NCBI GenBank assembly: GCA_016176505.1 | Contig: JACOXB010000008.1 | Location: 984 to 64,983 of the forward strand | Direction of reading: 5' to 3' | Source: Candidatus Colwellbacteria bacterium | Lineage (GTDB): Bacteria; Patescibacteriota; Minisyncoccia; UBA6257; Colwellbacteraceae | DNA length: 64,000 nt | Shown here: positions 2,617 to 50,095 of the stretch, piece by piece | Layout of the letters: each line of letters begins with the position of its first letter | Numbering within the stretch: the stretch's first letter is position 1 | Program-made: the position numbers and the translations under genes | The notes under the pieces: model-generated | What the model was told of the DNA's origin: nothing | The model's input: the letters and a program-made list of their open reading frames with translations, nothing else | Databases searched by the model: none

Positions 2617-2756
2617 TTCGAAGCTAGAAGTCTGCGGGTAGCCGGACAATCTCTAGTTTAGGACGGCCTGGTTCCGACTGGGCCGCTCCTCGAGTAGTTC
2701 CGGTCTCGAGTCGCCTATGACTTACCCTAAGTACCCGCAGTCTTCTGGCTTTCGAA
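2617..2756 (+). ncRNA. Candidate structured small RNA (~140 nt) closed by a ~24-bp imperfect terminal helix. Class not identified.
   Basis: ttcgaaGCTAGAAGTCTGCGGGTA at 2617-2640 pairs with TACCCGCAGTCTTCTGGCtttcgaa at 2732-2756. Internal local hairpins are present. It starts about 6 nt after the -10 box above. The 3' arm overlaps the last codons of pilB on the other strand. Confidence 0.25.
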
Positions 2757-4448
2757 CCAACCAATCGGTCCGCTCGCTCGAATCACCTCTTCCAAACTGG
2801 TCACGCCCTGGAGCGCTTTCAAGACGCCGTCTTCCTGCATCGTTACCATTCCCTTCTTCCTCGCCGCTTGTTCAATCTCAGATTCGGTTGCTCCTTCTTT
2901 CATTAAAAGATCGAGGGGGGTTCCGCCTCCGCCGGATTCAAATAATTCGAAAATGCCGACCTGCCCCCGATAGCCTTCTTCGCAACGATTACAACCCTTA
3001 CCAGGTTCGTAAATCTTAGCGTCTCGGAGGGAACGGGCAGAACCAGAGACTCGCTCGGGCAGGCTTTTTAAAAATTCCTCAATCTTAATTCTCGCCGGCT
3101 CCTCTATTTTAAGCTCTTCCCGGCAGTAAGGACAGAGACGCCTAACCAGTCTTTGGGCGATAACAATAATCAGAGCCGGACCAATCACGCCTGGCTTCAC
3201 CCCCAAGTCAACCAAGCGAGGAATAGCGCCCGAGGCATTATTAGTATGAAGGGTTGAAAAAACTAGGTGACCAGTGAGAGCCGCGTGAATCGCGGTTTCG
3301 GCAGTTTCTAAGTCTCTTATCTCGCCAACGAGAATTATGTCCGGATCCTGCCTCAGGATCGAACGAAGTCCGGCCACAAAAGTATAGCCGGATTCAAGAT
3401 CAACCTCGGTCTGCTCAATGCCTGAAAGGTGGTACTCAATCGGATCCTCAACCGTGATAATTTTCAGGGCCGGAGTTTTAACTTTAGCGAGAAAAGCATA
3501 GAGAGTGGTGGTCTTGCCCGAACCAGTGGGACCGGTAACCAAAACCATGCCGTTCGGCCGGGCCAGGGCCGCCGTAATCACTTTTTCGTCATCAGACCTG
3601 AAGCCTAAATCTTTCAGGGTTAAAACAATCTTTCGCGGGTCAAGAATTCTCATCACCACCGCCTCGCCAAACTCGGCCGGCACCACCGAAGCTCTTACCT
3701 CAACCTCGCCTTCATCGCCTGAAACAGTAAAGCGTCCGTCTTGAGGGCTATCAGTCACATTTAATTTGAGTTTGGCAAAAAGCTTAATCCGGCTCGTTAA
3801 TCTTTCGGCTATTTCGGCTGGAACTTGATTCACATCTTTTAGGAGGCCGTCGATCCGAAAGCGGATTGAAGTACCGCCTTCGGAGTGCGGTTCAAGATGA
3901 ACGTCAGAGGCCCCGAGCACTAAAGCTGAGGCGAAAATGGCTTCAACTAGCTGGCTGGTCGGCCCTTCTTTTTTTGAACTAATAAAGTCTGTGGCAAGAG
4001 TAGTAGTTTTCGCCGAGGTCCTCGCCGCATCTAAAATTGACTTAGTTAAGGCGGCCTCGGCTGTCACTGGTTTTTTGCCCAGTCCGAGGCGCTTCGCTTC
4101 TTTAAGATAACGAGCCCAAAGGGATTCAAGCCCTTTAAGCGAAGCAATTACTAAATTCACTTCGTAGCCGCGGGTTTTTAAATTCCCGAGGAGTTCTTTA
4201 AGCTCTGGCCGGAGCGAGCTGTAAATCGCAAGGGTTAATTTCTCTTTTTTAGCCTCGATCGGGATGGCCTTCGCCTGCCGTTCTTCTTCCTCGGTTAAAA
4301 GTAGTAAGGCCGCCGAGTCAACGGCGGTTTCCGCGAGATTAAGATAGGGAAAGCCCTCGGCTTGGGCCCTCCGTCTCGCATCTCTTTCCTCAGCGGCTTC
4401 GTTAAAAGAAGTGATTTTAGAGACAAGGGTATCTCTAGATAAGCGCAT
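2727..4448 (-). CDS. pilB: Type IV pilus assembly / type II secretion ATPase (PilB/GspE family)
   Basis: 573 aa with Walker A LVTGPTGSGKTTT, a tetracysteine CPYC...CNRC motif and an N-terminal GspE_N-like region. Confidence 0.85.
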   Translation of the reverse strand: MRLSRDTLVSKITSFNEAAEERDARRRAQAEGFPYLNLAETAVDSAALLLLTEEEERQAKAIPIEAKKEKLTLAIYSSLRPELKELLGNLKTRGYEVNLVIASLKGLESLWARYLKEAKRLGLGKKPVTAEAALTKSILDAARTSAKTTTLATDFISSKKEGPTSQLVEAIFASALVLGASDVHLEPHSEGGTSIRFRIDGLLKDVNQVPAEIAERLTSRIKLFAKLKLNVTDSPQDGRFTVSGDEGEVEVRASVVPAEFGEAVVMRILDPRKIVLTLKDLGFRSDDEKVITAALARPNGMVLVTGPTGSGKTTTLYAFLAKVKTPALKIITVEDPIEYHLSGIEQTEVDLESGYTFVAGLRSILRQDPDIILVGEIRDLETAETAIHAALTGHLVFSTLHTNNASGAIPRLVDLGVKPGVIGPALIIVIAQRLVRRLCPYCREELKIEEPARIKIEEFLKSLPERVSGSARSLRDAKIYEPGKGCNRCEEGYRGQVGIFELFESGGGGTPLDLLMKEGATESEIEQAARKKGMVTMQEDGVLKALQGVTSLEEVIRASGPIGWFESQKTAGT

Positions 4449-8260: not shown

Positions 8261-9397
8261 TCAGCTAGCCAGGCTCTTCACCGGCATTAAAATATAAAAG
8301 TAGCTTATGTCTCCTGGTGTTCTAATCACTGCCGGCTTCTCATCCCCGTTTAAGCCAAGCATTACTTCTTCACTCTCGCCCGAGCGAATGCCATCGAGGA
8401 GATAGCGCCAGTTAAAAGAGACTGTTAGGGGCTCGTCTCCTTTTGCCGTCTCACCAGATATCTTAGCTGGTAAAAGATAATTATTTTCGCCAACCGCGTT
8501 GTCAGCCGAATAAACCTCAAGTATTTTTTTGTCTTTAATCCTTAATTTAACTTCGTTTGTTCTTGAGGCAAAAAGTCCGGAGAGCTTTAGAGCGCCGCTA
8601 AGCTCGCTCCGGTTCACTAAAATCTCGGTTAGAATCTCTTTCGGCACAATCGCGTCGTAGTCAGGGAATTTACCTTCGATAATCCGAGAGACAATCTCGA
8701 GCTCTTCAGCCTCAAAAAGCACCTGATTATTATTAAGATAAATATGAACACCGCCATCTTCTTTAATGCTTCTTGATAACTCTTGGGCGGTTTTTAAAGG
8801 GACGATAAGGTCGGCAACTTGCTTGTTTTTATTTTTAATCTGACTGCTGGATATCTTGGCTTCGGCTAAACGGAAGCTGTCGGTCGCGACAAGCTTCAGC
8901 CCGCTTGTTTCGATCGAGAAAAGCACGCCGCTAATCTCTGGCCGAAGCTCGGAGATTTCTCCAGCCACCACCACCCGGTTTAGAGCATCGCGGAGAGGTC
9001 CTGCGCTCGTCTCAATCAACTCTTCTTTTTTCTCGGTTCGAGGGATAACCGGAAAATCGCTCTCATCAATTCCCTCGCACTTGGCCTCGTAGTTGTCGGT
9101 TTTCAAAACCAGATTATTCTTTTTGTCGGTTTCGAGACTAACCCTTTCACTTGAGAGGCCGGCTACAATACCAGCGAGGAGTCCGTAGGGAACCGTAATC
9201 CCGCCTTCCTCAACCACTTTTCCGGAAATGTTTTTAGTAATCGCGAGCTCAAGGTTGGTGGCCGAGAGTCTGATCTTATTGTTTTCGGACTTAATCAAAA
9301 CATTCCCCAAAACCGGCAAATTAAGGGCCGAGCCGACTGCCCGGCCAACCAGATCTAAACCAAGCTTCAAATTATTTTTTAAAACAACTAATTTCAT
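8261..9397 (-). CDS. dnaN: DNA polymerase III beta sliding clamp
   Basis: 378 aa with DnaN three-domain organisation, immediately downstream of dnaA. The stop codon is TGA. Confidence 0.9.
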   Translation of the reverse strand: MKLVVLKNNLKLGLDLVGRAVGSALNLPVLGNVLIKSENNKIRLSATNLELAITKNISGKVVEEGGITVPYGLLAGIVAGLSSERVSLETDKKNNLVLKTDNYEAKCEGIDESDFPVIPRTEKKEELIETSAGPLRDALNRVVVAGEISELRPEISGVLFSIETSGLKLVATDSFRLAEAKISSSQIKNKNKQVADLIVPLKTAQELSRSIKEDGGVHIYLNNNQVLFEAEELEIVSRIIEGKFPDYDAIVPKEILTEILVNRSELSGALKLSGLFASRTNEVKLRIKDKKILEVYSADNAVGENNYLLPAKISGETAKGDEPLTVSFNWRYLLDGIRSGESEEVMLGLNGDEKPAVIRTPGDISYFYILMPVKSLAS

Positions 9398-13142: not shown

Positions 13143-15515
13143 CTAAAGCTCGTCTTGTTCCCTTAAAATTTGCTCTGGATCAGTGGTAATCAACTTATCT
13201 TCAAAATAAGACGGCACAACCTGGATCGCTACGTGTTTCAAGCCGGCGATGAAAAGCCCGGTGCCCACCTCTGCCTCGAGCAGGTAGCTTTTTTCAGTTT
13301 CAGTCAGATTAAATGATTTGGCAGCCAACTCGATCGCGGCTGGCGATTGCCTAAGAAGCAGTTGGAGCGAGGAATTAGTGATAATCGGTCGGCCATAAGG
13401 CGAGTTTAAGAAGTCTTCAACATCCTGAGTAATAGTTGAGATGCCAAGATAGTATTTTCTCGATCGTTTGGCCAAGCGATAAAGGAAAGAGGCGCTGTCC
13501 GGATACTTCATCATCCACCAAGCCTCATCAACAACCATAATTCTTTTTTTCAGTTCTCGCCGCACCAGGCTCCAGACAAAGTTCAAGATAATATACATCG
13601 CAATCGGCCGCAGTTCTTCCTCTAAATCGCGCACCGAAAAAACAATTAAGCGGTTATCAATATTAACGTTAGTGGGCCGATTAGCAAAACCAACGTAACT
13701 GCCCTTAGTAAAGCGATAAAGCCGGTTCGCCATATCGCGACCCCCTTCGATGTTTCGCAGAACCTCTTCAAGATTTTCTAAAAGCGGCGGCTCTTTGCCG
13801 GTAAAATCTTTATCAGCCGTAATGTCTTTCGAGGCATAGGTTTCAGTAATAGCCTGGTCAAGTAAAGCCTCTTCTTCGGAGCTAATTTTGCCGAGCATCA
13901 GCTTAACTAAACCGCTGAGGTCAACAATATGCGATTTTAAGGCTTCGCCCGGAGTTTCGTCTTCGGCCATAATCGGCAAGTCGAGCGGGTTGATCGTACT
14001 CTCTGACTGCAAAGAGATCCGGAAATAACTGCCGCCAACTGCTTTTGCTAGGGTTTCGTATTCATTTTCCGGATCAACAATAATCAGGTCCGAACCAAGC
14101 ATCATCGAGCGAATTACCTCGAGCTTAGTGGCATAAGATTTTCCCGAACCAGCCTTGCCAAAAATAACCATATTAGCGTTTTCGAGCGAAAAGCGGTCAA
14201 AAATAATAACGGTATTGTTGTGGCGGTTTAAGCCGTAAAGCACGCCCTCATCCGAAGTTAAATCAAGAGCGATAAAGGGGAAGAAAGAAGAAACCGGCGC
14301 CGAGTTTAAGGGAGTATGGATGCCGAGCTCGTCTCTCGCCAGAGGCGCGGTTGAAACAAATCCCTTTAATTGCTCAAAGTTCGCCGGTTTAAGGTTCACT
14401 AATTTGCTATCTAGGTCTTTAATAATTCGATTCTCGAGCCCGACAAGCTCTTTTTCCGAATCAGCGTAGATAGTGATGTAAACACTTGTGTCAAAAAGTT
14501 TTTCTTCAGCCCGCTGGAGTGAATCTCTGAGCATCTCAATGTCCTGGAGGGCCGTCTCAAGCAGAGGATTCCGAATCAACCCCTTTTCTTGGCCCTCCAT
14601 TATTTGGGCTTCGATTTGGGTTGTTTTTCTTCTTAAGTTTTTTAGAGCCGTGCCGGTATCAAGCGGATGAACAAAGATAGAAATATCTAAAAGTTCGGGC
14701 AGGTTAATAATCGGCGAGAACCAGCCGCTTGAAAGATAGCGCGGATAATTGAACACAAAAAGCGTTTTTAAGTACTTCTCGCCGATCCGGATAAAGTTTG
14801 GTGAAACTTCGGCCGAGGCCGGCGCCACAATGTCCTCAAGTCCGGCAATGCCGCTTTTGCCTTGGCGGCCGATAGCTTCGCCCCTTTTTTCGATTGTAGC
14901 CGGGTTGTAATAATTAAAATAAAGCTCAAGTAATTCCGGATCCTCAAGCGCCACAGCCCGGAGGCCAATTTGGCGCAGACTATTAATTACCTGTTCGGTC
15001 CGCTGATCTAGCTGCTCTTGGTGAAGCGGGTCAACTGCTTCGTTAATTTCGCCGACACCTTCGGACGCTGTTTTTTTGCCACCGAGAAATTTACCAAAGA
15101 TTGATTTAGCTGGGCCGGGCAGGACTGGCGGGTCAAAAGGAACAACCACAAAAAAACTTTTCGCCATAATGGCGTTCGTCTCCACAAAAGATTTAACAAA
15201 CTCCCGATATTCCTCGAGCTGGATTTTTAAAAGTTTATTAGGCTCGTTTTGCTGCCTTTCCTCGAGCGATCGGAGATATTCATCAACATTTAATTTGCGG
15301 GAGTGGATATTAATCTGAATTGAAAAATCGAGCGAGTTAAGCAGGCTTTGATAGGTGCCAATAATGATTTTTTGCTCGTCCTCGGACTTAAGGTCAAAAT
15401 TTAAGCCGTCAACTAAGACAACCTTCCGGAGAGCCCCGTTTTTAAGAATTACAATGCCATCCTTAATATCCTGGATGTCGACAATGCTCTGGGCGCGCGC
15501 CGCTTCAGTCGCCAT
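13143..15515 (-). CDS. virB4: VirB4/TrbE/CagE-family type IV secretion ATPase
   Basis: 790 aa. The C-terminal ATPase has Walker A VIFGKAGSGKS and Walker B IMVVDEAWWMM, the VirB4 DEAW signature. Confidence 0.85.
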   Translation of the reverse strand: MATEAARAQSIVDIQDIKDGIVILKNGALRKVVLVDGLNFDLKSEDEQKIIIGTYQSLLNSLDFSIQINIHSRKLNVDEYLRSLEERQQNEPNKLLKIQLEEYREFVKSFVETNAIMAKSFFVVVPFDPPVLPGPAKSIFGKFLGGKKTASEGVGEINEAVDPLHQEQLDQRTEQVINSLRQIGLRAVALEDPELLELYFNYYNPATIEKRGEAIGRQGKSGIAGLEDIVAPASAEVSPNFIRIGEKYLKTLFVFNYPRYLSSGWFSPIINLPELLDISIFVHPLDTGTALKNLRRKTTQIEAQIMEGQEKGLIRNPLLETALQDIEMLRDSLQRAEEKLFDTSVYITIYADSEKELVGLENRIIKDLDSKLVNLKPANFEQLKGFVSTAPLARDELGIHTPLNSAPVSSFFPFIALDLTSDEGVLYGLNRHNNTVIIFDRFSLENANMVIFGKAGSGKSYATKLEVIRSMMLGSDLIIVDPENEYETLAKAVGGSYFRISLQSESTINPLDLPIMAEDETPGEALKSHIVDLSGLVKLMLGKISSEEEALLDQAITETYASKDITADKDFTGKEPPLLENLEEVLRNIEGGRDMANRLYRFTKGSYVGFANRPTNVNIDNRLIVFSVRDLEEELRPIAMYIILNFVWSLVRRELKKRIMVVDEAWWMMKYPDSASFLYRLAKRSRKYYLGISTITQDVEDFLNSPYGRPIITNSSLQLLLRQSPAAIELAAKSFNLTETEKSYLLEAEVGTGLFIAGLKHVAIQVVPSYFEDKLITTDPEQILREQDEL

Positions 15516-15592
15516 ATGCCTAAGTATAGGTTTTTCCAGTTCAGTTTTGTAGGTTCGGATAATTCGGATATATTTCGCAGTTTCGGATTATA

Positions 15593-16132
15593 TTATCGGT
15601 AATCAACCCGTTTGGCCACTTCTCTCTCGCCGGTTATTCGGCGAACTAATTCGTATTTTTCTTTAAGCCGGGATCGGGGTTGGCCAAAATTTCGAGGTAA
15701 CGGCTGTTCCCGTCTCGGAATCGCTGTTTTTGAAGTGGCAATCCATTGCCAAAGACCCTTAATGCCGCCGAGCGTCGGCTTCTCCGGCCCTGCGGCGGCC
15801 AGAGGCTCGGCCCTCGCTATTATAATTTTTTTAGCTTCAGCTTCGGTTCTTGGTAGCCGCGGGTCAAAAACGTATATTTTGGGCCGCCAGAAACTATCAA
15901 AAAAAGCTCGGAAGAAAACCATAAGCGGCCGGCCATTAACTTTAATAAAGGCAAGGGCCAGACCAATAGCCGAGACAATCACGGTAAGGATTAGCCAAAG
16001 CCAAAATTCAAAAAGAACAAAGAAAATGACAATAAGAATGGCGGCCGCGGCAATATAAGCAAATTGCTTCAGGGTGAGAGCGCCGACTACCCTATCTTCA
16101 GTTTCAATAAATTGCGGAACCTGAAACTGCAC
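15593..16132 (-). CDS. Two-TM membrane protein upstream of VirB4 (VirB3/PrgI/TcpE-like position)
   Basis: 179 aa with two adjacent TM helices near the N-terminus and a basic C-terminus. Synteny matches VirB3-VirB4 of Gram-positive-type T4SS. Confidence 0.4.
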   Translation of the reverse strand: MQFQVPQFIETEDRVVGALTLKQFAYIAAAAILIVIFFVLFEFWLWLILTVIVSAIGLALAFIKVNGRPLMVFFRAFFDSFWRPKIYVFDPRLPRTEAEAKKIIIARAEPLAAAGPEKPTLGGIKGLWQWIATSKTAIPRREQPLPRNFGQPRSRLKEKYELVRRITGEREVAKRVDYR

Positions 16133-16136
16133 GGTC

Positions 16137-17021
16137 TTATTTAGGGAGGTCCTTAAGGTTAACTACGTTATTGGGATGAATCGCTTCATTTGTTGGGGTT
16201 GTTTGACCACTCTGCTTATTGGATCGCTCCGCTTGTTCAAGTTGTTCAGCTCCGACATCTTCAACGCTTCCGACATCTCCAACGGGACTACTTAGTCCGG
16301 TATAATGAACCACTCTTATTTGAGGTTTCTCGGTTCTGCCAACTTTTGGCGCGGCTCCTCCGGGTCCGGAATAAGGATAAGCAGTGGTCGCTTCATCTAC
16401 TTCAAGCCGGGCTGATATAGGCTTTTGTTCTGCCGGGGCAGGCGCCTCATCGGGTTCGAAAAAGTAAGGTCGCGCTAAAGAGGGCGCTCCGTCTTGCGCC
16501 TGGGCTTGTTCAACCGCGCCTTCTTCATGAAGCATAAATGGTGAATTTGTATCAGTTGGTGGCGATTCAGGGATCGGCTTCCAACTCGAGGTTTCGGCAA
16601 AAGCCGGTTTTAGCTCCTGGGCCGGCTGAGCGTTAACGTTTCCGACGTTTCGAACATCTCCAACAGTTTGAACAGGCGCCTGCGGCTCCCTCACTTCTCC
16701 CCAATGGTAAAGCGAGGTTATCTCATCGATTATTGGCGCGAGAATTTTCTTGTTGATTTCCTCGGCAATGGAGTTCGCCACTTGGGCCGGCAAGTTAACT
16801 TCTTTTTGAAATTCTTTAGCCAAATCTTCAGGATGGACAAAGCCAAGAATAACCGCCCCGGTTAAGTCAGCGATTTTCTTCGTGCGTTCTCCGTTCAAGT
16901 GGTGATCTTCGCCTAAATCCCAAATCACATCAGTGCTTTTTTCGGAAAAAAGCACTTCTTTTAAATGCTCAGGCAGAGCATCAAATCTTTCTCTGGCTTT
17001 GCCTAGCGGAATATTAATCAT
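16137..17021 (-). CDS. Hypothetical Pro/Gln-rich protein inside the T4SS-like cluster
   Basis: 294 aa: a structured N-terminal ~110 aa followed by a low-complexity P/A/Q-rich region with VGDVxNVG-type short repeats. Confidence 0.5.
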   Translation of the reverse strand: MINIPLGKARERFDALPEHLKEVLFSEKSTDVIWDLGEDHHLNGERTKKIADLTGAVILGFVHPEDLAKEFQKEVNLPAQVANSIAEEINKKILAPIIDEITSLYHWGEVREPQAPVQTVGDVRNVGNVNAQPAQELKPAFAETSSWKPIPESPPTDTNSPFMLHEEGAVEQAQAQDGAPSLARPYFFEPDEAPAPAEQKPISARLEVDEATTAYPYSGPGGAAPKVGRTEKPQIRVVHYTGLSSPVGDVGSVEDVGAEQLEQAERSNKQSGQTTPTNEAIHPNNVVNLKDLPK

Positions 17022-17033
17022 AAAGACATTTTA

Positions 17034-19118
17034 TCATGGACCCGAGGCTGGCGCCGGTGGGGCGAATAAGAGTCCGCTACCCAGCATTCGGTCATATTCC
17101 CGATAAAGTCTCCGGGCGAAACTTGCGTCCCTCTCTTCGGGCGATCCTGCCGGAGACAAGGCGGCTCTTGCCTCGAGTGCCCTCAGTTTATCGTCCGTAT
17201 TTATACCTCGTCCTCGCAAACCGGCGGGTAAGGTTCTGGTCTCGAAATCGTGTACATGCGCCTCGAACGTTTGTTGGAACTGATCAAGCTCATCGGCGTT
17301 CATCCTCGTCCTAAGTCTTGAGGTGGTCTCCGGTACGGTTTCCAATAGCCCCGAACCAAGACGCCCTGCGATAACTTGTCGTGTCGCATCTTGGAATCCG
17401 TACTGATTTCCTGGCCTGAATATTCGGGGTTGAATAGCATCGACACTTCTAGCAGTTTGATAGGTCGCTTGCCGGAAAGCATCTACGGCATTTCCCAATT
17501 CAGCCAGAGTTCCAGTTCCGTCTTCGAATGCTCGGGCGGCGTTCGCGACGGCCGTATTAAATCCTGCTGCCTGTTCGAGATCTTCGTAATCACCAACTCT
17601 TCCTGATCGTTGGAACCTCCTTCTCGTTCTTGCATCGCCAATGTAGCGAGATAAGCTTCCCGGCGCGTCAGGATTTTGTGGTAGTAGTCCGAGTAGGCCG
17701 CGCTGCCTAAGGAAATCCATAGCCTCGTCTAAGGGGGCCCCGTGGAGACTTGGCACGGCTTGAGCTAAACGGGCCGGGTTCTTTTTTAGGGTCGTCAAAT
17801 CTTGATCCGCCGCCTTTTTGACAGCCTCTTCGCCTTTCGCACCTAAGATGTTTAATCCTCGCCCCCCAGCTCGGACCGGGGCAGTCATTAATCGACCCAT
17901 CAATCCTCTTTCAGCGCCGGTCTGTTGGACCCTCGTGGTGAGTCTTTGGCCAGCTTCGGTTCTGAACGGAGCCGAAACGGTTCTCATCGCCATTAACCTA
18001 CCTCTGGCCTTCGCCCACTTGCCGCCCTTCTTCGCCGCAGCAATCGCATAGCCCGAACCGGTGATCCCCATTTTATTAGCCGCCATAAGGCCGCCTATTA
18101 AAAGTCCCGCCACAACAGTCATTCCAGCTACGGCCTCGGAAAAACTGGAGGTCGACCCGCTTGAGCCCTCGAAGATGGCGGGATCCTGAGCCAACCTAAC
18201 CGACAGAAAAAAGAAAAACATGGCAACTGGGGCAAAAAGTAGCCATCTAGTGAACTGTTGCCACCAAAGAGACCAAGGATTACCGCCAGCGACCTTAAGC
18301 TTGTCGCCAAAAATCCAAGTGACCCAAGCCAAGGGCAAAAGGATTATCAGGAAGGCGAGCCACATGGCTCTTATAAAAAGCATGCCCGCGAAAGCGAAAA
18401 GGGCTAATGTCCCAAGCACGCCGAAGACGAGGGAGAAGAGGATACTGGCGATAGAGGCGCCTATTTTTCCTACGTCTTCATCTCCTGGTCCATCCCCCCC
18501 GATACTAGCTAGAAGATTATCTGTATCTACGGCGGGTAGAAGAAAGACCTTAGCAAAGGAAAATGGACTAAAGTTGGTCGCGTCTTTAAGAACGCCGGTC
18601 AAGGCATCAACCGGAGCCATAAAAATATTAGTAACGATAAAGAAACCGAAATTGATCAGAAGAGCCGCAACAGCAAATTTAAAAAGGTATTGGCCGGCGT
18701 CAGCCCGACGGAACATCACCATAAAGGCAATGATAATAATCGCCGCCACCAGCCCCAGGTTGGCAACGGCCAGCACTATATCGTGTCCTTCCTGGATTAT
18801 CGGTACGGTTTTTATCTGTTCGTTGAATTTAATCGCGAGGCTGATAAAGCCGCCAGCTATGGCAAAGAATATACTGGTTAAAAATCCGATAATCGCGATT
18901 ATGAGGCCGGCCGCTATCCGGACTAAATCGGCAACTATGGGTTCAACCACGTCGTCAAGAACCCACCCTATAATTTCTCCTGGCCACTCCCAAAATTTCC
19001 AATTCCAACTGAACGGGTTCCACCAGCTGGCGTAGACCGGTTGAATACTAAAGAAAAGGGTTAGGGCAGCGACAAATACTTTGGAGAGCCCATGTTTTTT
19101 ATTCAGGCGTTCCATCAA
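17034..19118 (-). CDS. VirB6/TrbL-like polytopic membrane protein with a long C-terminal soluble tail
   Basis: 694 aa with a signal peptide, then six or more TM helices in the first ~330 aa (W-rich periplasmic loop), then a ~350-aa hydrophilic tail. It is the first gene of the VirB4 operon. Confidence 0.55.
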   Translation of the reverse strand: MMERLNKKHGLSKVFVAALTLFFSIQPVYASWWNPFSWNWKFWEWPGEIIGWVLDDVVEPIVADLVRIAAGLIIAIIGFLTSIFFAIAGGFISLAIKFNEQIKTVPIIQEGHDIVLAVANLGLVAAIIIIAFMVMFRRADAGQYLFKFAVAALLINFGFFIVTNIFMAPVDALTGVLKDATNFSPFSFAKVFLLPAVDTDNLLASIGGDGPGDEDVGKIGASIASILFSLVFGVLGTLALFAFAGMLFIRAMWLAFLIILLPLAWVTWIFGDKLKVAGGNPWSLWWQQFTRWLLFAPVAMFFFFLSVRLAQDPAIFEGSSGSTSSFSEAVAGMTVVAGLLIGGLMAANKMGITGSGYAIAAAKKGGKWAKARGRLMAMRTVSAPFRTEAGQRLTTRVQQTGAERGLMGRLMTAPVRAGGRGLNILGAKGEEAVKKAADQDLTTLKKNPARLAQAVPSLHGAPLDEAMDFLRQRGLLGLLPQNPDAPGSLSRYIGDARTRRRFQRSGRVGDYEDLEQAAGFNTAVANAARAFEDGTGTLAELGNAVDAFRQATYQTARSVDAIQPRIFRPGNQYGFQDATRQVIAGRLGSGLLETVPETTSRLRTRMNADELDQFQQTFEAHVHDFETRTLPAGLRGRGINTDDKLRALEARAALSPAGSPEERDASFARRLYREYDRMLGSGLLFAPPAPASGP

Positions 19119-22774: not shown

Positions 22775-24298
22775 TCAATTCTCGCGGACTCTTAACTGAA
22801 AAGCCTCAGCTATATGAGGCGGCTCGACCACTTCGCTTCCTGCTAAATCAGCAATAGTCCTTGCTGTTTTCAGCAGTCGGTAATATCCCCGCGTCGTTAA
22901 AAGCGAACGGTTAAAAATATCTTTTAATAAATCATTCGCCTTATCAGTTAGACTAATCATCTCATCACATTCTTTAGCTGTCATTTCCGTATTAAGCATT
23001 TTATTAACCTCGGCATTTCTAAAGCGCTCGGCCTGCCCCTCCCTCGCCTTAAGGACCGCTTCTTTTAAGTGGTCGGCGTTTTCTCTTGGCCCTTGGAGAC
23101 TCTCAAATTTTTCCCGGGGCACGTTGATTTGGATATCAATTCGATCAAGCAAGGGGCCCGAGATCTTTTTCTGGTAGCGGAAAACTTCGTAAGCACTGCA
23201 GCGGCACTCTTTTTCATTGTCGCCCCAAAAGCCGCAAGGGCAGGGGTTCATGGCCGCCACCATTAAAAACCTGGCTGGAAAAGTGAGGTTGCTTTTGGCG
23301 CGAGAAACTATAATTTCGCCTGATTCTAAAGGCTGGCGTAAGGCCTCTAGTAGATCGCGCCGAAACTCCGGCAATTCATCAAGGAAGAGAACGCCTCGAT
23401 GAGCCAGGCTGATTTCGCCCGGCTGAGGATTAGAGCCGCCGCCAATAACCGAAACCGGCGAAGCAGTCTGGTGCGGGGTTCGGAACGGCCGATCGACAAT
23501 ATAATTTCCTTTTAATAATCCTCGAGCGCTCCAGACCTGCGTTACTTCGATTGCTTCGGTTAAGTCTAGCGGCGGCAGGAGGGAAATCAGGGATTTGGCA
23601 AGCATTGTTTTTCCAGTTCCGGGCGGCCCGCTCATTAGAAGGTTGTGGCCGCCAGCGGCCGCTACCACTAAGGCCCGTTTGGCAAAATCCTGGCCTCGGA
23701 TTTCACTAATATCTATTTCATGATTATCAATCGGCTCAAATTCGGTTTGAGGATGGGCTTCAATAATCGCAAGTCCGGCTAAGTGATTAATAAGATCAGC
23801 AAGCGTCCGAACCGGCACAATTTTAACCTCACTAATTAAACTCGCTTCTTTAGCATTCTCGATTGGCAGAAATAAGTATTGCCTCTTAGCTCTTCGAGTC
23901 AGAATCGCTGTGTTCAGGGCGCCAGGCACTGGTCGAACCCCGCCATCAAGCGCTAGCTCGCCAATAAAAATTTTGTCTTCACTATTAAAATCTTCAATCT
24001 GATCCGTGGCCCTAAGATAACCAATGGCAATCGCGAGATCATATTGAGAACCGGTCTTTTTTACATCAGCCGGCGCGAGATTAACCGTAATTTTCCGATT
24101 CTCTTTAGTCGGCGGTTTAAAGCCGGTATTTTTTAAGGCTGAGCTGACTCTTTCTTTTGATTCCGAAAGAGCTTTATCAGCTAGGCCGACAATATTAAAA
24201 CTATGAAAGCCGACATTTAGGTCGACCTCAACCTCAATTAGTCTCGCCTCGATGCCTTCGAGCTCAGCCGAATAAACTCGGGCGAGTGATTTTTCCAT
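22775..24298 (-). CDS. comM: YifB/ComM family Mg-chelatase-like AAA+ ATPase
   Basis: 507 aa with Walker A MSGPPGTGKTMLA and a C-terminal Cys cluster. Confidence 0.85.
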   Translation of the reverse strand: MEKSLARVYSAELEGIEARLIEVEVDLNVGFHSFNIVGLADKALSESKERVSSALKNTGFKPPTKENRKITVNLAPADVKKTGSQYDLAIAIGYLRATDQIEDFNSEDKIFIGELALDGGVRPVPGALNTAILTRRAKRQYLFLPIENAKEASLISEVKIVPVRTLADLINHLAGLAIIEAHPQTEFEPIDNHEIDISEIRGQDFAKRALVVAAAGGHNLLMSGPPGTGKTMLAKSLISLLPPLDLTEAIEVTQVWSARGLLKGNYIVDRPFRTPHQTASPVSVIGGGSNPQPGEISLAHRGVLFLDELPEFRRDLLEALRQPLESGEIIVSRAKSNLTFPARFLMVAAMNPCPCGFWGDNEKECRCSAYEVFRYQKKISGPLLDRIDIQINVPREKFESLQGPRENADHLKEAVLKAREGQAERFRNAEVNKMLNTEMTAKECDEMISLTDKANDLLKDIFNRSLLTTRGYYRLLKTARTIADLAGSEVVEPPHIAEAFQLRVREN

Positions 24299-24301
24299 AT
24301 T

Positions 24302-24646
24302 TTAGTGTTTTAGCTTGCAGTCGCGGCAGAGTTTTGACTCTGGCGCTACCTCGAGCAGTTCTCAGGATATTTCCTTGCCGCATTTTTCGCATTTGCCGTA
24401 CGTGCCCTCGTCCATTTTTCGGAGAGCCTCATTAATGTCCTTAAGTCTTAGCTCGAGCGGTTCTCTAATGGCCTCGTGAGTAACTCTTTCTTCACTCTCA
24501 TCCGAATCTTCTTCGCCAGCGGCGTAGGTAGTGTCTTCGCCAAAATCGCGCGCCTCCCGAGATCCTAGGGTTTTAACCTCTTTCTCAAGCCGCGCCTTAT
24601 CTTTTAGAAGCAGTTGTTTTAACTTTTCTTGATCTTCCGGAGTCAT
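24302..24646 (-). CDS. TraR/DksA family C4 zinc-finger protein, interrupted by an in-frame TGA at 24362-24364
   Basis: The ORF 24362..24646 ends ...GKCEKCGKEIS-TGA. Reading the same frame through the TGA gives ELLEVAPESKLCRDCKLKH-TAA (24302-24304). This completes an exact C-x2-C-x17-C-x2-C DksA/TraR finger. The gene then ends 3 nt before the comM ATG. Confidence 0.6.
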
Positions 24647-24713: not shown

Positions 24714-25286
24714 GTGATTCACAGCATCTCGGGAATCCTTAAAGAGCGAACCGGCCGCTTTATTATTATTGAAGCGAGCGGTTTTGAGTTTAAAATAGCC
24801 ATTCCCCTGGTTGAAGCCGCGGGCTTGCCCCAAGTGGGCGAGCCGGTCAAGGTTTTTACTTTTCTTCATTTGAGCGATGATGGAGCTCGCCTTTACGGTT
24901 TTTTGACCGAGGCTGAACTTGAACTATTTGAAGCTTTAATTTCAGTCTCAGGCGTAGGCCCAAAATCAGCCTTAGCCATTTTAGGCACCGCTCCGGTGGA
25001 ACAGCTTTTGGGGGCGATTGCCAGCAGTGAGGCCGGATTACTTGAGCGCTCTTCAGGTATTGGCCGGAGGACAGCCGAGCGGATTATTGTTGAGCTTAAA
25101 GATAAGGTAAGGCCGAGCGAAGGCGGAATGGCTGAAATGCTCGAGAAAGACGTTGATATTTTAGAAGCTCTGATTGGGCTTGGTTATACCAAGCGTCAGG
25201 CCCAAGCCGCCATTAAGGAAATTGATCCCGGCCTTGATGATATTCAGGATCGAATGCGGGACGCCTTGAAAAAGATAAAAAGATAA
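24714..25286 (+). CDS. ruvA: Holliday junction DNA helicase RuvA
   Basis: 190 aa with a GTG start, an OB fold, tandem HhH motifs (ISVSGVGPKSALAILG) and a C-terminal RuvB-interaction domain. Confidence 0.85.
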   Translation: MIHSISGILKERTGRFIIIEASGFEFKIAIPLVEAAGLPQVGEPVKVFTFLHLSDDGARLYGFLTEAELELFEALISVSGVGPKSALAILGTAPVEQLLGAIASSEAGLLERSSGIGRRTAERIIVELKDKVRPSEGGMAEMLEKDVDILEALIGLGYTKRQAQAAIKEIDPGLDDIQDRMRDALKKIKR

Positions 25287-28512: not shown

Positions 28513-28764
28513 ATGGAAGAAAAACCAATTGGCGAAGTCACCCACTATTACTCTCACCTAGGGGTGGCGATTGTTAAGTTCAACCGGAAAGTGAAAACAG
28601 GTGAGACGGTTCACTTTAAAGGAGCCACCACTGATTTTACCCAAGCCATTGATTCAATGGAGTTTGATCACAAATCAGTTGGCGATGCTAAGTCCGGTCA
28701 AGAGGTCGGGATTAAAGTGGGCGACAAAGTGAGGGAGGGTGACGAAGTTTACGCGGTGGTATAA
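28513..28764 (+). CDS. Small beta-barrel protein (EF-Tu domain-2-like); hypothetical
   Basis: The ATG at 28513 is 1 nt after the LOG stop. The 83-aa product MEEKPIGEVTHYYSHLGVAIVKF...VGIKVGDKVREGDEVYAVV looks like a translation-factor beta-barrel. Confidence 0.5.
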   Translation: MEEKPIGEVTHYYSHLGVAIVKFNRKVKTGETVHFKGATTDFTQAIDSMEFDHKSVGDAKSGQEVGIKVGDKVREGDEVYAVV

Positions 28765-29895
28765 GGAGATAATTCTGCCAACCGGGCTCTTGGCCTCGAT
28801 GATTATTGGGGCCGGGATGTTTGCCCTGCCTTATGTTTTTCTGAAGGCCGGTTTTTTACTCGGCCTTTTTTACTTGGCTGTTTTTGCGGCTGTATTTTCG
28901 GCGATTCACTTAATGTATTTGCGGGTTATTAATGAAACCGAAGGCCGACATCGGTTTGTTGGTTATGCCCGAATTTACTTGGGGGATTTTGGCTTTTGGC
29001 TCGCGGTTTTAACAACCGTTATTGGTTTAACGCTTGTCCTCGTGGCTTACTTGATTCTGGGAGTCGATTTTTTGAAAATAGCTATTCCCTCGCTTTCAAG
29101 CTCTCTGGCTCTTTATCTTTTCTGGTTTACTGGGGTCGCCGCTGTTGTTTTTTCCCTGAAGCGTTTGGCGAACTTCGAGTTCTTAGTTGCGGTGGCTATG
29201 GTGGCTATTATTTTGATTCTTTTTGGTTTCAGTTTAAAAGCGCCTTCATTAACTTTGTCTCGATTTAATCCCACGGATTTTTTCCTGCCTTATGGCGTAG
29301 TTCTTTTCTCTTTGGCTGGTCGAGCTGCTATTTCTTCTTTGCGCGATTATTGGCAGGGGAGGGCGTTGCCGAAAAAAGGACTCCGGCGAGCAGTGGTTTT
29401 AGGGACGCTTATTCCAGCTCTCGCCTCCGGCGAGCAGTGGTTTTAGGGACGCTTATTCCAGCTCTCGCCTATCTTCTTTTTGTGATTGCCGTGATAGCTC
29501 TCTCGCCAACTGGCCCTACACCTGATGCGATTACCGGATTAAACTTCATTCCGCCGCCGCTTCTTATCCTAGTCGGCGTCCTCGGGGTTTTCAGTCTTTG
29601 GACTTCTTATTTTTTCCTAGGGACTGAGGTTAAAGATATTTTAATTTATGACCTTCGCTTGCCCGGATTTTTTGCTTTTATGCTCGCGAGTTTCGTGCCC
29701 CTGATTTTATTTTTCTTTGGTCTTAATAATTTCATTGGCCTTGTTGGCTTTATCGGCGGCGTTTTTCTGGCGCTCGAAAGCATTATGGTGGTTTTGATGT
29801 ATTTAAAGCTTCGCCATAAATCCGTTCTTTTATACTTGCCCCTGATTCTTGTTTTTCTCCTCGGCGCTCTTTATGAAATCTGGCGCTTCTTCTAA
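28739..29895 (+). pseudogene. Amino-acid permease (Mtr/TnaB/APC-like), split by a frameshifting 44-bp tandem duplication
   Basis: ORFs 28739..29446 and 29350..29895 overlap in different frames. Both read RRAVVLGTLIPALA across the duplicated 44-mer. Removing one copy restores one ~370-aa polytopic permease (IGAGMFALPYVF...). Confidence 0.6.
29382..29469 (+). repeat. Perfect 44-bp direct tandem duplication (2 copies)
   Basis: TCCGGCGAGCAGTGGTTTTAGGGACGCTTATTCCAGCTCTCGCC occurs at 29382-29425 and 29426-29469. Confidence 0.85.
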
Positions 29896-30178: not shown

Positions 30179-30769
30179 ATGCGTCGCGTTACTCAGAAAT
30201 ACTTCCGGGAACTCCTAAGGGAGAAGCTCGGTCGGCAGTGGGCTCGCGCATTTCGTGTCTTCCGGAACTACGGCAAGAATCTGGGATGGGATGTGACGAA
30301 CGTCCTACTCCAGGCAGTGGACAAAGGCAAGGTAGGAGAGGTGCTCACGATCCTCGAGGAGCACTACGAGGACCACCTTCAGTACCAGCACCCAGACGTC
30401 CGCGGTCTCGTGGCTGGCGACCTCGGCGTGAACCTCACTCAGAGGATGTTCGTCGACATCTGCGAGAAGGTGCTCGAGCTCCAGCCAGATGATGGCAGCC
30501 GCGCACCCGCGGATCTGGCTACGCTGACGAAGGCGGATTCACCGATGCGCTTCCAGACCCAGACTTCGATCTACGAGATCGTGAGAGGGGTGGGGGGATT
30601 CGTCCTCCGCAAGCTCGAGGCCTCCGCTCCGAGCAAGATCCAGCCAGGAGACGGCCCGTTCCAAGGCGACAAGGTAGTGATCACCCAGAGTCGTCAGCTG
30701 GTGCTCTACGACGATGGCTACGTCGTGATGAACACGAGCCCGATCGCGAAGATCCTGACCAGGGTGTGA
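30179..30769 (+). CDS. Hypothetical protein encoded by a GC-rich (foreign-looking) cassette
   Basis: 196 aa with strong GC3 bias (GAG/CTC/GGC/CGC codons) against a ~45% GC background. A GAAAGGAGG ribosome-binding site sits 6 nt before the ATG. The stop is TGA, followed by a terminator. It lies ~200 bp from tRNA-Arg. Confidence 0.6.
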   Translation: MRRVTQKYFRELLREKLGRQWARAFRVFRNYGKNLGWDVTNVLLQAVDKGKVGEVLTILEEHYEDHLQYQHPDVRGLVAGDLGVNLTQRMFVDICEKVLELQPDDGSRAPADLATLTKADSPMRFQTQTSIYEIVRGVGGFVLRKLEASAPSKIQPGDGPFQGDKVVITQSRQLVLYDDGYVVMNTSPIAKILTRV

Positions 30770-35460: not shown

Positions 35461-35489
35461 TTGACAATGGCTTGACCGCGAGTTATAAT
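35461..35489 (+). promoter_or_regulatory. Perfect consensus sigma-70 promoter: TTGACA, 17-nt spacer, TATAAT
   Basis: TTGACA at 35461-66, 17-nt spacer, TATAAT at 35484-89. It points into GC-rich cassette 2. Confidence 0.5.
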
Positions 35490-35629
35490 TGTTGCGTAAA
35501 TTGTACCTTGAGAAAGTGGGCACTTGTGATTTAAAGAGGTCTTCACGCCCTAGCTTCTAAATTCTAGATTCTGGGAATTAAGGCGTGGAGACCTCACTAG
35601 GAGGTTTCCGAAACAGAAAGGAGCTGACC

Positions 35630-36166
35630 ATGTCGGATGACATGCTCGGCAAGGGCGCTCTGGCCGCGGTGGCCGGACCGCTCAAGGATTTCGCCGAGAG
35701 GCTCGCCGGATCAGACGGTCCGGAGTGACTCTCCGCTTTCAAGCGGTTCCTCCGCAAGGAGGAGGCGTGGGGTGCCATCCCCAACTTCTCCCGCGACATG
35801 AGAGAGGAGGGTTGGGAGCTCGTCGAGAGCATCGACGAGGAACCTGCCCCGGTCTCCAGGCTTGAGCTCGTCTCCTTCCTTAGGCGTGGCGAGAGCTACG
35901 TCTCGGGCGAGACGATGCGCGAGCGAGTCAGGGAGGAAGGGGCCAGCCTGGGCCAGCGCCAAGCTGAGTACCTACGCGTGCACCAGGAAGAGATCCCGTC
36001 CGAGTGGCGGGAATTCTACCTGGTTCTCCCAGGTACGGTCTGGCGTGACCGGGACGGCGACCTGTACGTTCCGTACCTCTACTGGCACGGCGGCAGGTGG
36101 TACATGCTCTTCCACCGGCTCGAGCGCGACTGGTACTCCAACGGCCGGCTCGTCAGTCGCAAGTAG
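35630..36166 (+). CDS. Hypothetical protein of GC-rich cassette 2, with an in-frame TGA at 35726-35728
   Basis: An AAAGGAG ribosome-binding site sits 6 nt before the ATG at 35630. A 32-codon ORF (MSDDMLGKGALAAVAGPLKDFAERLAGSDGPE) ends at the TGA and the same frame continues. High GC3 persists without a break through the TGA into ORF 35798..36166 (MREEGWELVESI...). The short alternative is a stand-alone 35798..36166. Confidence 0.4.
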
Positions 36167-43420: not shown

Positions 43421-46400
43421 GTGTTAAAAGATAAAGAAACACTTAATCTGGCTCTGCTTGAAGAAAAGGTGCTTCGGGTTTGGCAGGAGAATCATATTTT
43501 TGAGAAATCACTCGATCGGCCGAAAAGGAAAGCCTTTCATTTTTACGAAGGGCCGCCTTATGCGAACGGTTTACCCGGGATTCACCATGTTTTGAGCCGG
43601 GTTTTTAAAGATATTATTCTTCGCTATAAAACCATGCAGGGATATTTTGTGCCTCGCAAGGCTGGTTGGGATACGCATGGTTTGCCGATTGAGCTCGCGG
43701 TAGAAAAAGAACTCGCCATTAAGAACAAAGACGAGATTGAAAAAATCGGTATTGATAAATTTAACCAAAAGGCGCGCGAAATCATCTTCACCTACAAAGA
43801 TGAGTGGGAAAAATTTACGAGACGCATCGGCTATTGGCTTGATCTCGATAACGCTTACGTTACTTATGAAAATTCTTATATCGAAAGCCTTTGGTGGATT
43901 TTTAAAACCGTTGAAGACCAGGGTTATTTAAAGCAGTCGCGCAAAGTCGTGCCTTACTGCCCAAGGTGTGAAACGCCTCTTTCCAACCACGAAATGGGCA
44001 TGCCTGATGTTTATCGAACCGCTGAAGATCCCTCAATCTACGTTAAGTTTAAGTTAACTGAAGATAATCCCGGCGTTCTACCGAATGAATATCTTCTGGT
44101 TTGGACTACTACGCCTTGGACTCTGCCGGCTAATATGGCGGTCGGGGTCGATCACGAACTTGAATACACCAAGTACCAAGTTGGTGATGAATTTCTCTGG
44201 AGTTATCGACCGCCGCCAAAACTGGCGCACGAAATTAAACCGCTCGAGAAGAAAAAGGGTAAGGAGTTAATTGGCTTAAAGTACGAGCCGCTTTACTCTC
44301 TTTCTCTTCCCAATCCGCCGGCTAAAACCTTTACTGTTATCTGGGCTGATTTTGTGAAAACCGAAGAAGGAACCGGTTTAGTTCACATTTCACCAGCTTT
44401 TGGTGAAGAAGATTTTTCAAATTGGGGAGGCGAGGGCTTTGTCGTCACCATTGATGATCAGGGCCGGATTCAGTCCGGTTTCCCGGGCGCCCGAAAGTTT
44501 CTTAAACAAGCTGACGAGGACATTATCGAGGATTTAAAAAGAAGGGGATTGCTCTATCTGGGCGAGAAAATCGAACACGAGTATCCTTTTTGCTGGCGCT
44601 GTTCGACGCCGATTGTTTATTTTGCTCGAACCGGCTGGTTTTTTGAGATGAGCCGTTTGCGCGAGGAGCTTTTAGCAAACAACGACAAAATTAACTGGAT
44701 TCCAGCTCATATTAAAACCGGTCGTTTTGGCGAATGGATTAAAAATGCGGTTGACTGGTCTATTTCCCGGGAGCGTTATTGGGGGACACCTTTACCAATC
44801 TGGCTTTGTTCCAAGGGTCATCGCAAAGTAATCGGCGCTCTCCACGAATTGGATAAGAACGCTTTTTCTAAAAATCAGTTCTTTATTTTACGGCACGCTG
44901 AGGCTGAATCTAATATTTCCTGGGTTTTAGCTTCAGGTCCGGAAGAAGGGGAGAGAAAATCAGCTTTAACTGAAAAAGGTTTAACCGAAGCCAGAGAACT
45001 CGCTAAATATTTTAAAAAAGAAAAAATTGATCTTATTTTTGCCTCGCCCTATGAACGAACCCGGCATACAGCCGAAGTTATCGCTGAGGCTGTCGGTGCT
45101 AGGTTAATTACCGACGAGCGGTTGAGTGAGCTTAATGGCGGCATCTTTAACTGGAAAAAAATTAAAGAACATCAGGGATTCTATGCTGATCCGCTTGAAC
45201 AATTTGTGAAGCGTCCGCCTGAAGGCGAGAATCTCCAGGATGTTCGAGAGCGGATGCTTGATTTTGTTCGCGAGGTTAATAAGGAGCATAGCGACAAAAA
45301 GATTTTAATTGTTTCTCACCAAGCGCCGCTTTGGCTGCTCGAAACCGGAGTAAAACATTTATCAAATGAAGAAGCACTTAAAATCCCAGGCCCTAATGTC
45401 TCCGAATGGCGCAGGCTCGAGCTTGATAACTTACCAGTCACTCGAACCGGCGAGATTGATCTGCACCGACCTTATATTGATGAAATCTATCTGCGATGCC
45501 AAGAGTGCGGTGAAAAAATGATCCGGGTGCCGGATGTGGCTGATGTTTGGTTTGATTCCGGCGCTATGCCTTGGGCCTCAGGCATCGAAGGCTATCCGGC
45601 TGATTATATTGCTGAAGGCATTGATCAAACCCGGGGCTGGTTTTACACCCTCTTAGCGGTAGCTACTCTTCTTGGCGCGGGGCCGCCGTATAAAAATGTG
45701 ATTTCCTTAGGTCTTATTAATGATAAATACGGCCAAAAGATGTCAAAATCAAAAGGGAATGTGATCGACCCTCAGGCGATTATCAATAAATACGGCATTG
45801 ATGCCGTTCGCTGGTATTTTTATACTGTTAATCCCCCGGGTGAGCCGAAAAACTTTGACGAGGAAGAGGTGGCTCTCGCGATCAGGCGCTTTTTTCTGAT
45901 TCTTTATAATTCCTTCAATTTTTACGAGAATACCCGGGTAAGCGAGAAGAAAAAAACCGGCCTTCTACCCAAGTTCCGGAAAACCGAACATGTGCTTGAC
46001 CGCTGGATTTTAGCCAGACTCCACCAAACTATTGATGAGGTAACCAGGAAGCTTGAAATTTATGAGATTGGCGATGCGGCAAGATCAATCGAAACTTTGG
46101 TTGATGATCTCTCGCGCTGGTATATTCGACGCAGTCGCCGGCGAGGAGAGATGGCAGAAACTTTAGGCCAAGTGCTATTTGAGACAAGTAGACTCATCGC
46201 GCCGTTTGCGCCGTTTTTCGCTGACGCCCTATATCACTCAACCACGACGACCGGTGGAATAAAGGCTAAAATTTCAGTCCATCTTGATAACTGGCCTCGG
46301 GCTACAAAATCTCGGATTCGGAAAGAGGTGCTCGAGAAAATGGTAAAGACCCGCAAGCTGGCAGCTTTAGCTCTTGCCAAACGTAACGAAGCCGGCGTCC

Positions 46401-49156: not shown

Positions 49157-50095
49157 TTATAGGCGGGGAGCTAGACGGTCTTGGCCAGTCATTTCGTCGT
49201 GGATATTTAAGACCGCTTTAATGGCATCACCGGCTGAAGAGTTGTTTTGCTTGTATAAAACATCAGTTACATCGCCGGCCGCCCAAATGCCCGGATAAGA
49301 AGTCTTTTGAGTTCGGTGATCAATCACCACCTCCCGATAAACGTTGAATTTAACCAGGTCGTCGAGAAAATCGACATTGGGTTCAGAACCGATTTCAACA
49401 AAAACGCCGCCAAGCTTCAGCTCTTTAATTTCGCCAGTGGTTTTGTCCGCGTATTTAAGAGCGGTGACAAATTCGCTTCCTGTTATTTCCTTGGTCTCGG
49501 CATTTAAGATAATTTCGACTTTCGGCTCACGCTTAATTTTTTCCTGGGTGACCGGATCGCCTTTCAATGTTTCGCGGCGATGGATCAGATAAATCTTTGA
49601 GGCATAGGGCAGAAGATCAATCGTTGCCTCGAGACCAGAGTTGCCGCCGCCAACAACTGCCACCACCTTATCCTTAAAAACAGGCGCATCACAGGTGGCG
49701 CAGTAAGAGACTCCCCGGCCGTCGAATTCTTTGCCGCCGGGGACATCGAGATGCCTGCGGCGGCTGCCGGAGGTTACCAAAATTCTTTCGGTTTCGAATT
49801 CCTTGCCGCTTTGAGTTTTCAACCTGAAGCCGCCATCTAACTTCTCTACTTTTTCGATCAAGTCTCCGTTAACAATTTCAATCTCCTCTTGAGCTCGCAG
49901 ATGTTCCTCAAGCATTTTGGCTAAATCATAACCGGATGCGGCTTTAGTGCCGATCCAGTTTTCAATATCGTTGGAAACCAAAGATTGACCGCCAAAAGTA
50001 TCAGTTATAAGGAGGGTTTTTATTTTCTTTCGGGCGGCATAGACACCGGCGGCAACGCCGGCCGGACCGCCGCCCACAATCACTAGTTCGTACAT
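49157..50095 (-). CDS. trxB: Thioredoxin-disulfide reductase
   Basis: FAD motif VIVGGGPAGVAAGVYAARK, the redox CATC motif and NADPH motif VVGGGNSGLE. Confidence 0.9.
   Translation of the reverse strand: MYELVIVGGGPAGVAAGVYAARKKIKTLLITDTFGGQSLVSNDIENWIGTKAASGYDLAKMLEEHLRAQEEIEIVNGDLIEKVEKLDGGFRLKTQSGKEFETERILVTSGSRRRHLDVPGGKEFDGRGVSYCATCDAPVFKDKVVAVVGGGNSGLEATIDLLPYASKIYLIHRRETLKGDPVTQEKIKREPKVEIILNAETKEITGSEFVTALKYADKTTGEIKELKLGGVFVEIGSEPNVDFLDDLVKFNVYREVVIDHRTQKTSYPGIWAAGDVTDVLYKQNNSSAGDAIKAVLNIHDEMTGQDRLAPRL

Follow-up and report, generated by a model that had tools for sequence, protein, structure and literature searches.

An in-frame UGA interrupts a DksA/TraR-type gene upstream of comM

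The DNA analysed here (the window) is a stretch of 64,000 nucleotides (nt) with a GC content of 47.7% from Candidatus Colwellbacteria bacterium (Patescibacteriota; GenBank assembly GCA_016176505.1, contig JACOXB010000008.1, positions 984 to 64,983), and the gene under study is a short DksA/TraR-type (YteA-like) gene on its minus strand that carries an in-frame TGA. The full frame (24302-24646, minus strand), delimited from the sequence, Pfam and NCBIfam matches, the neighbourhood and an orthologue alignment, comprises 94 codons, the TGA, 19 further codons and a TAA. It starts with an ATG at 24646 and is open for 94 codons ending in ...CEKCGKEIS (24362-24646, minus strand), which encode the coiled coil and the first CxxC only. 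The premature TGA follows as codon 95 (24362-24364, minus strand; first codon base at 24364), and the same frame then runs on through ELLEVAPESKLCRDCKLKH to the TAA at 24302-24304, so that 19 codons specifying the helix of residues 95-100 and the second CxxC (C107 and C110) are stranded beyond the stop (24305-24361, minus strand). Downstream in the same unit lies comM/YifB, encoding a Mg-chelatase-like ATPase of 507 amino acids (aa) and ending in TGA (22775-24298, minus strand), whose ATG (24296-24298) begins 3 nt past the TAA. On the other side, ruvA (24714-25286, plus strand) is a conserved, divergently transcribed neighbour. An earlier note on this DNA, made from the sequence alone, had reported an in-frame TGA in a DksA/TraR zinc-finger gene, and the ends of the open reading frame (ORF), its continuation, the TAA and the gap to comM were all reproduced from the sequence.

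Reading through the stop, which occupies residue 95, brings C86, C89, C107 and C110 into a C-x2-C-x17-C-x2-C arrangement, of which the 94-aa product keeps only the first two cysteines. The read-through frame and the intact sibling allele described below both pass the Pfam model PF01258 (zf-dksA_traR) with 38.2 bits, above the cutoff of 24.9, whereas the truncated ORF fails with 16.6 bits. The family profile matches the solved DksA structures 2kq9, 1tjl, 6ptg and 4ijj with the four cysteines aligned, and in 1tjl they fall on C114, C117, C135 and C138. The cysteine positions and the Pfam score agree with the spacing that the note had given for the restored finger, and the profile alignment bears out its comparison with E. 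coli DksA.

E. coli DksA (1TJL, 5VSW) regulates RNA polymerase through the secondary channel. The restored protein shares with it a coiled coil of two helices and, after this, a zinc domain of the form C-x2-C-x17-C-x2-C (profile E 1.7e-14); unlike it, it is 114 rather than 151 aa long and ends 4 residues past the last cysteine, without the C-terminal helix. The tip of the coiled coil is an acidic loop, EEDSDESEE (residues 45-53), at which the 1tjl alignment is gapped and the model confidence is below 50, and in this gapped alignment, unlike in E. coli DksA, no clear DxxDxA motif can be made out. Scores of 50.2 bits against a cutoff of 115.5 (TIGR02420) and 54.6 against 105 bits (NF033459) set the protein apart from DksA sensu stricto. 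The YteA and DksA models head its NCBIfam ranking, all below their own cutoffs. The best of them, Bacillus YteA (TIGR02890, a monoderm DksA-like family; E 6e-18 over residues 5-111), resembles it in size and in the position of the finger, yet with 65.4 bits against a cutoff of 134.4 the protein is not a YteA member by the NCBI criterion, and the C-terminal extension of YteA is absent. The gene is, in Colwellbacteria (Patescibacteria), the orthologue of a short protein of the DksA/YteA type that combines a coiled coil and a C4 zinc domain. GenBank annotates the 94-aa product (MBI2010878.1) as 'hypothetical protein HYS89_01435', an entry that can be corrected to a truncated DksA/TraR-type regulator. 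A separate translation start for the 19-codon tail was considered and is unlikely, the tail having no ATG, GTG or TTG (the sole candidate is a CTG, codon 97).

Independent assemblies share the stop and a sibling haplotype lacks it

Run-level Logan assemblies of four SRA runs (SRR12113420, SRR12113430, SRR12113385 and SRR12113422) were compared with the window. The 94-aa product, looked up by exact match, is present in three independent assemblies (SRR12113420, SRR12113430 and SRR12113385), whose DNA agrees base for base (100%) with the metagenome-assembled genome (MAG) over 1.05-1.87 kb, TGA included. Since three independent assemblies share the TGA, a random base-call or consensus error is excluded for practical purposes, and the 'sequencing error' that the note had listed among its candidate explanations falls away.

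Clustering at 90% identity groups the truncated protein with one other sequence, P0134, an intact protein of 114 aa. Its source is L088, a 1582-nt Logan contig from the sibling run SRR12113422, which differs from the window at 2 of 1582 nt (99.87% identity). At 24364 the coding strand has C in L088 where the window has T, which makes codon 95 CGA (Arg) rather than TGA; at 24438 (minus strand), 74 nt from the first site, codon 70 is GGC (Gly) in L088 and GAC (Asp) in the window. The flanks show no difference over 160 nt on the upstream side and over 1074 nt of comM, and a second SRR12113422 contig matches 2241 nt of the window exactly. Orthologues have Asp at residue 70, so that Gly70 is derived on the sibling haplotype, and parsimony from the sister lineages gives the order CTA to CGA to TGA at codon 95, with TGA derived. 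Look-ups of the inferred ancestor (D70/R95), of a G70-truncated form and of L, W, G or Q at position 95 found none of them in the collection. The background of variation in this population is low (9 mismatches in 36.5 kb, ~0.025%, in eleven other population contigs compared with the window), and 8 of 10 control genes have no protein variant in the collection. Against this background, four population single-nucleotide polymorphisms (SNPs) were observed within 14 nt at 50017-50030 (window versus L089, from SRR12113430).

Because the 99.87%-identical L088 has CGA, the stop reads as a single C-to-T transition segregating in a near-clonal population. The variant is real, and dominant in several samples; it is very probably a very recent nonsense change, CGA (Arg) to TGA, in groundwater Colwellbacteria. 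The note had named a very recent nonsense mutation as one candidate, and the sibling contig with its CGA and intact 114-aa protein supports that candidate strongly. An error of sequencing or assembly, with a sense codon as the true base in this strain as well, could draw on the sense codon of L088, on the errors that MAG consensus sequences can carry and on a suspicious perfect 44-nt duplication elsewhere in the window; it is nevertheless extremely improbable, given the agreement of the MAG with three runs and the second, linked difference in L088, which fits a distinct haplotype.

Orthologues are intact and the gene was under constraint

The arrangement of ruvA divergent from the dksA-like gene and comM was found in 14 loci of at least five other lineages (L004, L005, L073-L082 and L083-L087, with L073-L082 being ten identical copies). 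All 14 positional orthologous loci are intact and encode 111-119 aa. At the column of the TGA they have CTA (Leu, in the two nearest lineages), ATA (Ile), GAA (Glu) or ATG (Met); the orthologue alignment that the note had proposed as a check therefore finds the TGA not conserved. Scans of genome and metagenome contigs with the restored protein, used for a survey of this column, gave nothing closer than ~50% identity among the matches listed, from which the organism's own species was absent. Among the 71 homologous loci listed from genomes and metagenomes, a stop occurs in the window's own population only, the other 68 being free of one, and the column is otherwise occupied by E, V, I, Q, L, T, R, S, A, P, H, Y, W or K (Trp in one homologue, L045) and never by Cys, a hypervariability that upholds the description of residue 95 as non-conserved.

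The ratio of non-synonymous to synonymous substitution rates (dN/dS) of the gene against its two nearest orthologues is 0.03-0.07, the synonymous sites upstream of the stop being saturated. Changes assigned to the window branch number 26 synonymous and 13 non-synonymous upstream of the stop and 3 and 0 downstream, neutral evolution on this branch is rejected (P about 2e-9), and the stranded tail itself has a dN/dS of 0.06-0.08. The dksA-like gene, tail included, was strongly constrained until very recently, in keeping with the polymorphism seen in the population. An intact tail is what is expected of a young nonsense allele, and its integrity is therefore no evidence for read-through. Compared with orthologues, the last 19 codons have diverged far less at synonymous sites (dS 0.56-0.75) than the codons before them (>2.5, saturated).

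The hairpin beyond the UGA is older than the stop

An RNA hairpin (24313-24356, minus strand) begins 5 nt 3' of the UGA, with a folding energy of -18.4 kcal/mol (z = -1.94) that is matched by 2.25% of synonymous recodings. Its core, GCG.CCAGAGU-CAAA-ACUCUG.CGC, is identical in L005 and L073, orthologues with a Leu codon at the position of the stop, and nucleotide-identical in the three nearest lineages; it is absent from the more distant orthologues L083-L087, and no compensatory pairs were found. Searching Rfam with the hairpin returned no family, its sole match being a chance one to a human long non-coding RNA (18 bits against a cutoff of 60). Because the core is shared with Leu-codon orthologues, the hairpin predates the stop and is incidental rather than built for it, and it was rejected as a selenocysteine insertion sequence (SECIS) or read-through stimulator on the grounds of its presence in sense-codon orthologues and its lack of covariation and of an Rfam family. 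The low dS of the tail and the identical hairpin core may reflect RNA-level constraint just upstream of the comM start.

These results weigh on programmed UGA read-through, one of the candidates of the note, in which the hairpin would help to give a regulated, full-length DksA-like protein. Such read-through would account for an intact tail that encodes the rest of the domain and would make use of a stable hairpin close to the UGA. The base after the stop is G and not the strongly terminating U (PMC5289835), Trp insertion should be tolerated at a column where L045 has Trp, and E. coli K-12 reporters leak passively at UGA, by near-cognate decoding, at ~2-4% (PMC10570021). The site here shares with that leak the stop codon and the likely tolerance of Trp; the figure, however, belongs to the E. 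coli release factor and tRNA-Trp and may not be this organism's, and passive leak is not programmed recoding. The sibling strain has CGA in otherwise identical flanks and TGA occurs in no orthologue, which leaves neither the time nor the lineage depth for a recoding signal to evolve, and the history of the hairpin core gives no sign of one. With a stop of near-clonal origin, absent from all orthologues, and a hairpin that predates it, we regard programmed read-through as very unlikely.

Insertion of selenocysteine at the UGA, with the hairpin acting as SECIS, would likewise explain a stem-loop closely 3' of the stop. Bacterial SECIS elements have a G/U signature in the loop. The apical loop here is CAAA, the same hairpin occurs beside Leu codons, the column is never Cys in homologues and is Arg in the sibling allele, and residue 95 lies between the knuckles and is not a ligand. 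Within the 64-kb window there is no selA, selB, selC or selD, and no suppressor tRNA or tRNA-Sec; its RNA genes are tRNA-Arg(CCG), tRNA-Leu(CAG) and a transfer-messenger RNA (tmRNA) only. The searches suggested in the note for a SECIS-like hairpin and for selB/selC or suppressor tRNAs thus yielded a hairpin of the wrong kind and, in the window, none of the genes, and the probability of selenocysteine insertion is next to nil.

UGA acts as a stop elsewhere in the window, with one further interrupted gene

The two neighbours of the dksA-like gene, comM (507 aa) and a Mur ligase gene (415 aa), have TGA as their terminator and do not differ in length from their orthologues. TGA also ends dnaN (8261-9397) and the cassette ORF at 30.2 kb (30179-30769), the two examples that the note had named and which were confirmed. 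In all, TGA terminates 13 of 59 other plausible genes (~22%). In-frame TGAs were found in only two of ~60 genes, all other long genes being free of them, and no gene for release factor 2 (prfB) lies within the window. Within the window TGA behaves as a normal stop, and with the standard code in use translation should terminate at the UGA of the dksA-like gene, in line with the view of the note that global UGA reassignment is unlikely. The accompanying statement that the long ORFs are intact was borne out, save that it had overlooked another in-frame TGA (35726-35728) and a permease gene with a frameshift.

The second TGA is codon 33 of a GC-rich (60%) cassette gene that extends from an ATG at 35630 to a TAG at 36166 (plus strand) and of which GenBank annotates only a 122-aa C-terminal ORF (HYS89_01500). 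Its two closest full-length homologues, P0159 and P0165, have Trp at this codon. In the third disrupted gene, which resembles Trp/Tyr permeases (28739-29895), a perfect 44-nt tandem duplication (29381-29424 repeated at 29425-29468, plus strand) causes a frameshift; the L004 orthologue is continuous and 85% identical. The duplication is either a real lesion or an assembly artefact. Both nonsense changes in the window are G:C-to-A:T transitions, and three disrupted genes of ~60 fit sporadic gene inactivation, or an artefact in the case of the duplication.

A leaky or ambiguous UGA, read as Trp genome-wide in this Colwellbacteria lineage at an early stage of UGA-to-Trp reassignment, would let both TGA-interrupted genes still make functional full-length protein, with Trp placed at a tolerant column in the DksA-like protein and at a position of conserved Trp in the cassette protein. 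The position of the second TGA at that Trp column is the only observation that nourishes this explanation, which would be the one outcome of wider interest if true. UGA-reading tRNA-Trp variants occur in many phyla, and an independent switch of UGA to Trp is known from one family of Patescibacteriota (PMC13092985). Such decoding is hard to reconcile with the share of genes that end in TGA at positions matching orthologue lengths and with the freedom of all other long genes from in-frame TGA. The dksA-like TGA derives from an Arg codon, CGA, and not from Trp; TGG to TGA is one of the most frequent ways in which nonsense codons arise; the seven remaining Trp residues of the cassette gene are all encoded by TGG; and the frameshifting duplication in the third gene is a lesion unrelated to decoding. 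We consider leaky decoding very unlikely.

Truncation is predicted to abolish or strongly reduce function

In the AlphaFold model of the intact allele P0134 (mean predicted local distance difference test score 76.5, about 88 over residues 71-110), helices of residues 3-35 and 50-80 form the coiled coil and are followed by the first knuckle, a helix starting at residue 95 and the second knuckle. Foldseek places this model closest to DksA2 (4ijj; template modelling score (TM) 0.77, E 3.2e-05, top match), and its superposition on E. coli DksA (1tjl, 5vsw) has a TM of 0.83 and a root-mean-square deviation of 2.4-2.7 Å, a likeness well beyond chance. Termination at codon 95 would yield a 94-aa protein missing the second CxxC and the helix of residues 95-100. 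Two of the four zinc ligands and roughly half of the globular domain would go with them, and the domain should then fail to fold. As the globular domain of Salmonella DksA unfolds when its zinc-finger cysteines are lost or oxidised (PMC6294903), the nonsense allele is expected, on the model, to be most likely null or strongly hypomorphic. Any full-length protein should be due to unprogrammed near-cognate read-through of the UGA alone, at percent level or lower, and near-cognate tRNA-Trp could give a little R95W protein.

The stop lies ~65 nt upstream of the comM start and may also lower coupled translation of comM, a loss that is conceivable because in relatives the comM start overlaps the stop of the dksA-like gene (ATGA). 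The absence of a Shine-Dalgarno sequence from comM was set aside as an argument for translational coupling, being uninformative where most genes in the window lack one.

An ordinary nonsense polymorphism, with a frequency that invites caution

Several points weigh against a simple recent loss-of-function allele. The evidence on the alleles consists of assembled contigs; the intact allele is known from a single 1.58-kb Logan contig, and the nonsense allele is the commoner one (the MAG and three runs, against one run with the intact allele). A nonsense allele that is commoner in a gene under strong purifying selection is a little unexpected and leaves room for tolerated leakiness or adaptive loss. 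The stranded tail is perfectly intact, which recency explains and read-through would too. The loss of function is one that we infer, and zinc-independent DksA paralogues exist: Pseudomonas aeruginosa DksA2 (4IJJ) shares the fold and shows it to be possible without four Cys ligands, though DksA2 keeps the full polypeptide, whereas the product here loses globular-domain polypeptide and not ligands alone. Finally, two non-synonymous changes, R95* and D70G, are the only haplotype differences over 3.8 kb, and they fall together within the 345 nt of the dksA-like gene, a clustering that is marginally non-random by a post hoc calculation (P about 0.008-0.05).

This clustering, together with the greater frequency of the nonsense allele and the want of protein variants in 8 of 10 control genes, could mean that the allele rose to dominance because inactivating a DksA-type regulator is beneficial, which would refine rather than replace the reading of the stop as a recent nonsense change. 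The statistic was however formed after the fact from two SNPs only, and linked SNPs often cluster, as the four at 50017-50030 do. For the frequency, drift or hitch-hiking in a small clonal population is an equally good account, and the two other lesions in the window suggest general decay. Adaptive loss is accordingly a rather improbable refinement, which we nonetheless keep in view.

As a recent nonsense change, the allele shares with ordinary nonsense polymorphisms and nascent pseudogenes the single transition, the strain-level and polymorphic occurrence, the undecayed downstream codons and the presence of other lesions nearby, and nothing distinguishes it from them save the possible, unproven clustering of two non-synonymous changes. 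What the gene carries is thus an ordinary nonsense allele at strain level, and the protein family it belongs to is well known. The locus provides a natural pair of intact and presumably null alleles of a regulator that, by analogy with its family, would bind RNA polymerase, in an uncultivated bacterium of the candidate phyla radiation. With the two other lesions in 64 kb it also hints at ongoing gene inactivation in the population.

Other features of the cassette genes and the window

Members of the family of the interrupted cassette gene lack a Pfam domain; they vary at the N-terminus and share a conserved C-terminal domain of ~120 aa (YLVFPGTVWRDRDG...), and no relatives that would point to a viral origin were found in IMG/VR. 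The GC-rich stretch at 35.4-36.25 kb had been considered as a structured RNA, for which there was no Rfam family, and proved to be protein-coding. Ahead of the gene (35461-35598, plus strand) stands a perfect sigma-70 promoter, TTGACA-17-TATAAT (12/12), a strong hairpin of ~65 nt follows in the leader, and this promoter and leader are unlike those of the surrounding genes. The two cassette ORFs (30179-30769 and 35630-36166) share no homology, and both have strong AAAGGAG(G) sites. Most genes in the window lack a recognisable Shine-Dalgarno sequence, and in many a TATAAT-like box lies no more than ~20 nt from the start, suggesting mRNAs with short leaders or none.

Two further observations concern other parts of the window. 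A TraG/VirB4-like P-loop ATPase (790 aa) adjoins ORFs of 294 and 694 aa without Pfam matches (13143-19118, minus strand), and a T2SSE-type ATPase lies nearby at 2727-4448; together they may form a secretion or pilus module. The catalytic domain of an isoleucyl-tRNA-synthetase-like protein (1134 aa; 43421-46825, plus strand) is split in two by an inserted histidine-phosphatase domain (His_Phos_1, residues 488-661).

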